From Escherichia coli (lineage in GTDB: Bacteria; Pseudomonadota; Gammaproteobacteria; Enterobacterales; Enterobacteriaceae): a DNA stretch of 64,000 bases. The notes beneath the pieces were generated by a model. That model had not been told where the DNA came from. It made no database searches and worked only from the letters and a program-made list of their open reading frames with translations. Below, in pieces: positions 6,135 through 6,407 of this stretch. The position numbers and the translations under genes were made by a program. The stretch is from the NCBI RefSeq assembly GCF_050920415.1, contig NZ_CP169309.1; one strand, written 5' to 3'. Position 1 is the first letter of the stretch. Every line of letters starts with the position of its first letter.

Positions 6135-6407
6135 ATGAATATTTATACCTTTGATTTTGATGAGATTGAGAGTCAGGAGGATTTTTATCGCGACTTTAGC
6201 CAAACCTTTGGTCTGGCAAAAGATAAAGTACGCGATCTCGACTCTCTATGGGATGTGTTAATGAACGATGTCCTGCCGCTACCACTTGAGATTGAATTTG
6301 TTCATCTGGGAGAGAAAACGCGTCGCCGTTTTGGCGCGTTAATATTGCTGTTTGATGAGGCAGAGGAAGAGCTGGAAGGGCATTTGCGTTTTAATGTTCG
6401 TCATTAG
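6135..6407 (+). CDS. yhcO: Barstar-like (ribonuclease inhibitor family) small protein YhcO
   Basis: 90-aa acidic [24 protein letters not shown]...; conserved position after aaeB. Confidence 0.85.

Follow-up and report, generated by a model that had tools for sequence, protein, structure and literature searches.

The window, a 64-kb stretch of DNA, is E. coli chromosome. An open reading frame read directly from it (yhcO; Table 1) runs from an ATG to a TAG and encodes a 90-residue protein with 21 Asp or Glu against 10 Lys or Arg residues, and hence a net charge of −11. This agrees with the sequence-only reading, which had described an acidic protein of 90 residues lying between aaeB and yhcN; the placement likewise matches the annotation of E. 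coli MFDS1022581, which is 100% identical to the window across 2.6 kb and has the gene order tldD, aaeR, aaeX, aaeA, aaeB, yhcO, yhcN, argR, mdh, degS, degQ, with aaeB upstream of yhcO on the same strand and yhcN downstream and convergent. In that strain RefSeq annotates the gene as 'yhcO: barstar family protein'. YhcO is identical across all 90 residues to the E. coli 'hypothetical protein yhcO' of PDB entry 2CX6 and 80% identical to the Salmonella protein of 5F4C, and the absence of a signal peptide suggests a cytoplasmic location. The gene, its barstar family assignment and its structure are already known from public databases.

The neighbouring aaeB gene differs from its counterpart in MFDS1022581 by an 11-bp deletion (GACTGGTGATC is absent) after about position 4327, with zero mismatches in the rest of the aaeB stretch. 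The resulting frameshift, which the sequence-only reading did not mention, replaces the 655-aa efflux subunit with ORFs of 146 and 607 aa, and since the deletion splits the reading frame aaeB is a pseudogene in the window. Only 2 of 5,425 E. coli genomes are at least 99% identical to the first 25 kb (positions 1–25000), all others being 95–99% identical, so this is an uncommon E. coli lineage.

Table 1. Features of the yhcO region and of other parts of the window (positions counted from the first nucleotide of the window)
Feature	Coordinates	Strand	Remarks
aaeB	4087..6043		interrupted by a frameshift
aaeB intrinsic terminator	6051..6075	+	stem CCGACGC / GCGTCGG, 5-nt loop, then T6
Sigma-S-type −10 element GCTATACTTA	6080..6089	+	−13 C, TATACT; ~45 nt upstream of the yhcO ATG; putative promoter
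Short leader	6090..6134	+	site where relatives carry the RNase gene (predicted deletion site)
yhcO CDS	6135..6407	+	ATG..TAG, 90 aa, barstar fold, no signal peptide
Helix-2 DxxxD motif, codons of D36-S-L-W-D40	6240..6254	+	aligns with barstar D35, W38, D39
Acidic helix 4, codons of D74-EAEEELE-G82	6354..6380	+	E75/E79 align with barstar E76/E80
GC-rich hairpin GCCCCCGAACCGGGGGC	6419..6435	.	between convergent yhcO and yhcN; A8/T8 run on the yhcN side
yhcN-family gene	6463..6726	-	YdgH/BhsA-like
Five-gene cluster between yhcG and gltD	24636..32076	-

The end of aaeB is marked by an intrinsic terminator that was read directly from the sequence and is not among the hits of the consensus scan; its hairpin and T-run are kept in E. 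albertii, Citrobacter, Pseudocitrobacter, Pluralibacter and Klebsiella. Directly 3′ of this terminator lies GCTATACTTA, conserved in 7 of 9 aligned genera, which we infer to be the yhcO promoter, and a sigma-70 consensus scan of positions 5900–6900 returned no promoter. Published work describes yhcO as RpoS-dependent (PMC2907692) and as induced by a rapid acid shift (PMC2270276), and reports that LldR binds upstream of yhcO and activates it, with the function of the gene given as unknown (PMC10272880); a transcriptomics paper of 2026 still calls it hypothetical. On the downstream side, the terminator scan reports the GCCCCCGAACCGGGGGC hairpin on the minus strand and the plus side has no T-run, though the hairpin may also serve to terminate yhcO transcripts.

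The Pfam Barstar profile (PF01337) matches residues 1–81 of YhcO at 37.6 bits (E = 2e-9; gathering score 23.4), while no NCBIfam model matches the protein and PADLOC returned no match for it. The AF2 model of YhcO (pLDDT 94) is closest in Foldseek to 2CX6 and 5F4C (TM 0.99 and 0.98), and superposes on B. amyloliquefaciens barstar, either free or barnase-bound, with a TM of 0.77–0.80 and an rmsd of 2.0–2.3 Å, the bound barstar chains being taken from barnase complexes 1BRS, 1X1W and 1BGS. The earlier assignment to the barstar family is therefore borne out by the profile, where the match lies above the cut-off, by the predicted model and its fold comparison, and by the solved structure 2CX6. The three-layer alpha/beta fold, in which four helices accompany a parallel sheet of three strands, is common to YhcO and B. 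amyloliquefaciens barstar (PF01337; 1BRS, 1BGS, 1A19), and both are small and acidic (net charge −11 and −6, respectively), with YhcO probably cytoplasmic like barstar, but YhcO, unlike the Bacillus protein, has no adjacent barnase gene. The two solved structures add no contrast of their own, 2CX6 being the same protein and Salmonella Typhimurium YhcO (5F4C) an orthologue from the same locus with no difference, and both are structural-genomics entries without ligand or partner.

At the residue level, the BLASTP alignment of YhcO with barstar covers 77 residues at 27% identity (E = 5e-6). Barstar D35, W38, D39, E76 and E80 are kept as YhcO D36, W39, D40, E75 and E79, so that the protein encoded in the window has both the DxxxD motif and the helix-4 glutamates with which barstar blocks the active site of the RNase; of these, Asp39, Asp35 and Glu76 of barstar are experimentally validated hot spots of the barnase interface (PMC2231411). 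In contrast, the peripheral RNase-contact residues are not kept: Y29, Y30, G31 and N33 are replaced by D30, K31, V32 and D34, and T42-G43-W44 by M43-N44-D45 with an additional one-residue insertion. By sequence and fold, YhcO is a barstar family member, and it should not be filed as a working barnase–barstar system.

As the sequence-only reading had noted, no ribonuclease gene lies in the neighbourhood. A tblastn search of the 64-kb window with barnase, RNase Sa and RNase T1 found no barnase-like gene (the best barnase match among the matches listed has E = 0.32), and the annotation of the near-identical strain MFDS1022581 contains no barnase-type ribonuclease across the region. The closest relatives of YhcO outside the E. 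coli group are all encoded directly behind a PF00545 RNase gene. In Xenorhabdus the order is yhdP, CN-hydrolase, tldD, RNase (156 aa), barstar (89 aa), with darP and pmbA further downstream; Pragia fontium has the same order with one extra gene after tldD and an RNase gene that overlaps the barstar start by 4 nt, and two metagenome contigs show it with 0–2 extra genes after tldD. The pair is instead preceded by the aae genes in Serratia liquefaciens (aaeR, aaeX, aaeA, aaeB, RNase, barstar, darP, pmbA) and in Yersinia pseudotuberculosis (aaeXAB, aldehyde dehydrogenase, RNase, barstar, darP, pmbA). Hafnia paralvei has aldehyde dehydrogenase, RNase, barstar and darP, and in Proteus mirabilis the RNase and barstar genes are adjacent. 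The paired barstars are 41–55% identical to YhcO, with Serratia liquefaciens at 55% and Yersinia pseudotuberculosis at 52%. Their partner RNases are 55–57% identical to barnase, begin with hydrophobic signal-like leaders and retain all of barnase K27, R59, E60, E73, R83, R87, H102 and Y103; judged by these features, they are genuine secreted barnase homologues.

These paired barstars, from Serratia, Yersinia ('probable ribonuclease inhibitor YPO3690'), Hafnia, Xenorhabdus, Proteus and Pragia, are positional orthologues of YhcO at the tldD/aaeXAB ... darP-pmbA locus, and share with it the LP.EIEF.HL and LLF(E/D)EAEEELEG segments. Unlike YhcO, they share a transcript or overlap with an intact gene for a secreted barnase-type RNase, and they keep an F-G-x-N-L-D-A-L-W-D...T motif that is lost in the orphans. 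An exhaustive profile search returned no more than 132 related clusters at 50% identity, of which many were fragmentary; because it did not reach the classical Bacillus barstars, it says little about the wider barstar family.

To define the orphan group, we scanned one genome per species with a profile built from 7 sequences and took the best 80 loci, none of which has a matching RNase gene. All lie in Enterobacteriaceae or Erwiniaceae (Erwinia, Mixta, Pantoea) with the exception of a 241-bp contig (L076, NZ_GG667244.1) in the Corynebacterium lipophiloflavum DSM 44291 assembly, which encodes YhcO residues 1–58 at 100% identity to E. coli and is almost certainly E. coli contamination. Where enough flanking sequence is available, the orphan order is (tldD)-aaeR-aaeXAB-(aldehyde dehydrogenase in many)-yhcO-yhcN(x1-3)-argR-mdh. 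The spacing at the presumed deletion site is short: Serratia has aaeB, 243 bp, a 149-aa RNase, 5 bp and the barstar gene, compared with aaeB, 91 bp and yhcO in E. coli, and at locus L006 the gap between the aldehyde dehydrogenase and barstar genes is only 40 bp. In local alignments with Serratia, Yersinia and Hafnia, the E. coli aaeB–yhcO spacer scored no better than shuffled sequence and showed no RNase remnant; the sole exception in these spacer alignments, a 10-nt match to GGCTATACTT, is notable only for its position, since Serratia carries exactly GGCTATACTT 21 nt past the aaeB stop, ahead of the RNase–barstar pair. This is suggestive only, but the yhcO promoter may have been inherited from the old RNase–barstar operon.

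Neighbour-joining places the orphans in a single clade whose sister group is the paired barstars of Yersinia and Xenorhabdus. Comparison of gene orders shows YhcO, as far as sequence can establish it, to be the surviving immunity half of an ancestral operon of a secreted barnase-type RNase and its barstar, from which the RNase was lost. On the simplest reading, the ancestor shared by Enterobacteriaceae and Erwiniaceae lost the RNase gene in one clean deletion; a rearrangement breakpoint lies just downstream of the barstar gene. We found no evolutionary reconstruction of the yhcO orphan state in the searchable literature; the single deletion, the intermediate Serratia and Yersinia gene orders and the remodelling of the interface after the loss (see below) are an incremental comparative-genomics result. 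The aldehyde dehydrogenase gene (PF00171) found at this locus varies on its own: many Enterobacteriaceae (loci L006 and L016 among them), as well as Yersinia and Hafnia (L094 and L097), have it between aaeB and the barstar gene, and it is absent from the locus in E. coli, Salmonella, most Citrobacter, Klebsiella and Serratia, a pattern from which it follows that it was gained or lost independently of the RNase.

Of 5,426 complete E. coli genomes, 5,425 carry the orphan gene. Its dN/dS, calculated for the window against E. albertii, is 0.039 (dN 0.019, dS 0.48), similar to that of yhcN (0.048) and higher than that of argR (0.005), and values of 0.023 and 0.035 were obtained against records labelled E. 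coli E69 (L007) and SCPM-O-B-8794 (L009); dS is saturated beyond the genus, so these ratios are reliable only within Escherichia. About half of the YhcO residues are invariant across 81 orphan loci, and a comparison of the rates of change of orphan and paired barstars, set against housekeeping neighbours, gave no clear difference. On this comparative evidence, the substitution rates show a gene under strong purifying selection that is not decaying. The earlier suggestion of a remnant immunity gene thus holds as an account of origin, the positional orthologues in five genera being the second gene of an RNase–barstar pair, and fails as a description of a decaying leftover, given that yhcO is core in E. 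coli, evolves with a dN/dS of about 0.04 and has half of its residues invariant across the 81 loci.

We then compared the RNase-contact surface of a paired set (7 context-verified barstars and 31 cluster representatives; n = 38) with that of the 81 orphan loci, which come from different species or strains. Using barstar numbering, position 30 is Phe in 36 of 38 paired barstars and highly variable in the orphans (K, Q, S and others); position 31 is Gly in 35 of 38 and Val or Ile in the orphans; Asn33 is kept in all 38 and is Asp or Asn in the orphans; Ala36 is found in 37 of 38 and is Ser in the orphans; and Thr42, present in 31 of 38, is Thr, Met or Ile in the orphans, which also have a one-residue insertion after helix 2 where most paired barstars have none. 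Residues 28–33 and 43–46 of YhcO, the counterparts of the two loops through which barstar contacts barnase, vary more than any other part of the protein. The core face behaves differently, with D36, W39, E75 and E79 invariant in all 81 orphans and the helix-4 stretch D74–G82 invariant or nearly so across them. The RNase-contact loops have thus changed around a fixed D36, W39, E75 and E79, so that the orphans keep the core acidic face and lack the features of a tight, specific barnase inhibitor. The acidic helix 4 is also found in the paired barstars of Yersinia, Serratia and Xenorhabdus, and for that reason is not new in the orphans.

The second Asp of the DxxxD motif departs from the rest of this core. 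All 38 paired barstars have Asp at the position of barstar Asp39, whereas in the orphans it is acidic in 74 of 81 (49 Asp, 25 Glu) and non-acidic in the remaining 7 (2 Lys, 2 Ile and one each of Ser, Gln and Leu). The proteins of the seven species with a non-acidic residue are full-length, and their RRR(F/Y)... and LP.P.EIEF segments are unchanged. Judging from these counts, this Asp is not a clade-wide constraint among the orphans.

Taken together, these observations suggest the following course of events. The ancestral operon would have consisted of a secreted barnase-type RNase and its barstar, located downstream of tldD or aaeXAB and upstream of darP-pmbA; an operon of this form survives in Yersiniaceae, Hafniaceae, Morganellaceae and Budviciaceae. 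The common ancestor of Enterobacteriaceae and Erwiniaceae would have lost its RNase gene by a clean deletion, and a rearrangement would have placed yhcN-argR-mdh downstream, while the barstar gene was retained, read from the putative sigma-S-type promoter just past the aaeB terminator and kept intact by strong purifying selection. Once the RNase had gone, the two RNase-clamping loops would have been remodelled and the position of the barstar Asp39 hot spot would have become free to vary, while the acidic face of helix 2 (D36) and helix 4 (E75, E79) stayed fixed. YhcO would now use this face, which formerly mimicked RNA, to contact a basic partner other than a barnase-type RNase.

The reading we prefer, to which we give an even chance, is accordingly this: YhcO may be a stand-alone cytoplasmic binder of stationary phase and of acid and lactate stress, with its acidic face placed on a changed, non-barnase basic partner. 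Both the change of partner and the binding through the acidic face are what we infer from the pattern of conservation. Carried further, the same argument would make YhcO an exapted, sigma-S-controlled acidic nucleic-acid mimic that regulates another conserved basic protein of Enterobacteriaceae and Erwiniaceae, possibly an unrelated RNase or an RNA- or DNA-binding protein, acting in stationary phase or under acid or lactate stress; we hold this tentatively, at somewhat less than an even chance. The E. coli protein itself speaks against a changed role in one respect, as it retains all five core positions (D36, W39, D40, E75 and E79). Searches of the literature found no interaction, phenotype or biochemical data for YhcO, and nothing specific to it under 2CX6, orphan barstar or barstar-like immunity; one paper citing 2CX6 is unrelated.

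A different possibility, which we regard as unlikely while still deserving attention, is that YhcO remains an orphan immunity protein that neutralises incoming barnase-type RNases, whether these are secreted by Serratia, Yersinia, Hafnia, Proteus or Erwinia living nearby or delivered as Tox-Barnase domains of injected polymorphic toxins, by inserting D36 and D40 of helix 2 together with E75 into the RNase active site. With the DxxxD motif and the E76/E80 equivalents intact and a fold that superposes on barstar in its barnase complexes, E. coli YhcO could bind barnase-type RNases with useful affinity, and Enterobacterales that share habitats with E. coli widely encode secreted RNases of this type. 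No secreted RNase is known to pass through an intact bacterial envelope; sigma-S and acid induction could fit the protection of stressed, leaky cells. The variability of the RNase-contact loops is open to two interpretations, since an arms race would predict that these loops vary most, and the variation could come from diversifying selection against foreign RNases and not from relaxed selection. Against an immunity role stand the dominant hot spot, which lacks an acidic residue in 7 of 81 orphan species whose proteins are otherwise invariant, and the loss from the orphans of F30, G31, N33 and T42 of the paired forms (some orphans keep N33 or T42). Among polymorphic toxins, Tox-Barnase has a recognised immunity family in Imm-Barstar (PMC3482391), but deep, uniform conservation at a fixed core locus without a PADLOC match is atypical of defence against variable foreign toxins. 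Without co-expressed barstar, cloned barnase is toxic to E. coli (PMC8403359), so that chromosomal YhcO would seem to give no protection against the Bacillus enzyme. This lethality counts against YhcO as an inhibitor of external RNases, but the argument is weak, as barnase is over-expressed from plasmids in such experiments, and yhcO depends on sigma-S, so that its expression in growing cells is probably low.

If the target were instead a resident RNase, YhcO would inhibit a barnase-like enzyme encoded elsewhere in the E. coli genome, as the sequence-only reading had offered as its second option; our searches leave this suggestion unsupported, and we consider it very improbable. Beyond the window, barnase-type RNase genes gave no match in 50,697 phage records, and a tblastn search of 72,556 PLSDB plasmids with the Yersinia RNase matched Bacillus, Clostridium and two mislabelled Proteus chromosomes but no plasmid of Escherichia or other Enterobacteriaceae. 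The genome-wide search, a blastn comparison of the Yersinia-type and srf-type RNase genes with 5,426 E. coli genomes, found none at its DNA-level sensitivity, and no Escherichia protein is among the best 120 relatives of the Xenorhabdus RNase. The key inhibitory Asp, moreover, is not conserved across the orphan clade. A second RNase–barstar pair (loci L093, CABEIZ010000079.1; L092; L098) does lie beside srfABC-type virulence-factor genes in Erwinia tasmaniensis, in a Pantoea and on a 5.3-kb contig labelled Klebsiella pneumoniae, the last label reflecting perhaps a misassignment, perhaps a rare acquisition. The wider clade therefore does contain unlinked barnase genes, which lends the idea of a resident target some plausibility, but each of these RNases comes with an adjacent barstar of its own, in a clade apart from that of YhcO. 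The view that YhcO is a functionless relic that has not yet decayed is barely credible. Its cognate RNase is gone and its function was still listed as unknown or hypothetical in the literature of 2023 and 2026, but a relic would hardly be kept in all but one of the E. coli genomes and intact at 81 loci spanning two families, with a dN/dS of 0.02–0.04 within Escherichia, about half of its residues invariant, a putative promoter element that is conserved and regulated expression; on these comparisons, the selection data effectively refute it already.

YhcO resembles the orphan immunity proteins known from polymorphic toxin, T6SS and CDI systems in being an immunity-type protein without its toxin, and it belongs to the same family as the Imm-Barstar class that is paired with Tox-Barnase (Zhang et al. 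2012, PMC3482391). It differs from them in holding a fixed core-genome position in two whole families, as opposed to a variable island or cassette array, in deriving from a simple secreted-RNase operon and not from a delivered toxin, and in giving no PADLOC match. Annotating yhcO as a barstar gene only restates the databases, where it is already a named E. coli K-12 gene with a crystallised product; what is added here is an evolutionary account of its orphan state, which makes yhcO a tractable example of the fate of an immunity protein after the loss of its toxin. It also turns the annotation 'putative barnase inhibitor' into a sharp question, namely whether YhcO inhibits the Serratia or Yersinia RNase and what it binds in stationary phase. 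Should the exaptation we tentatively propose be true, it would document how an immunity protein can be recruited to housekeeping regulation. It is commonly stated that E. coli lacks a barstar gene (PMC8403359); strictly speaking this is incorrect, since yhcO is a barstar-family gene that is core to the species.

Two further features of the region vary between lineages or may do so. The number of yhcN-family copies beside yhcO differs by lineage across loci L007–L086: E. coli and several Citrobacter and Enterobacter carry a single copy, most Enterobacteriaceae carry two, and Erwinia, Mixta and Pantoea carry three. The cluster between yhcG and gltD encodes SWIM zinc-finger, DUF5691, AAA-type ATP-binding, DUF5682 and VWA-domain proteins, for which PADLOC returned no match; it may be variable, as flanking similarity in some other E. 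coli genomes ends at about position 24562.
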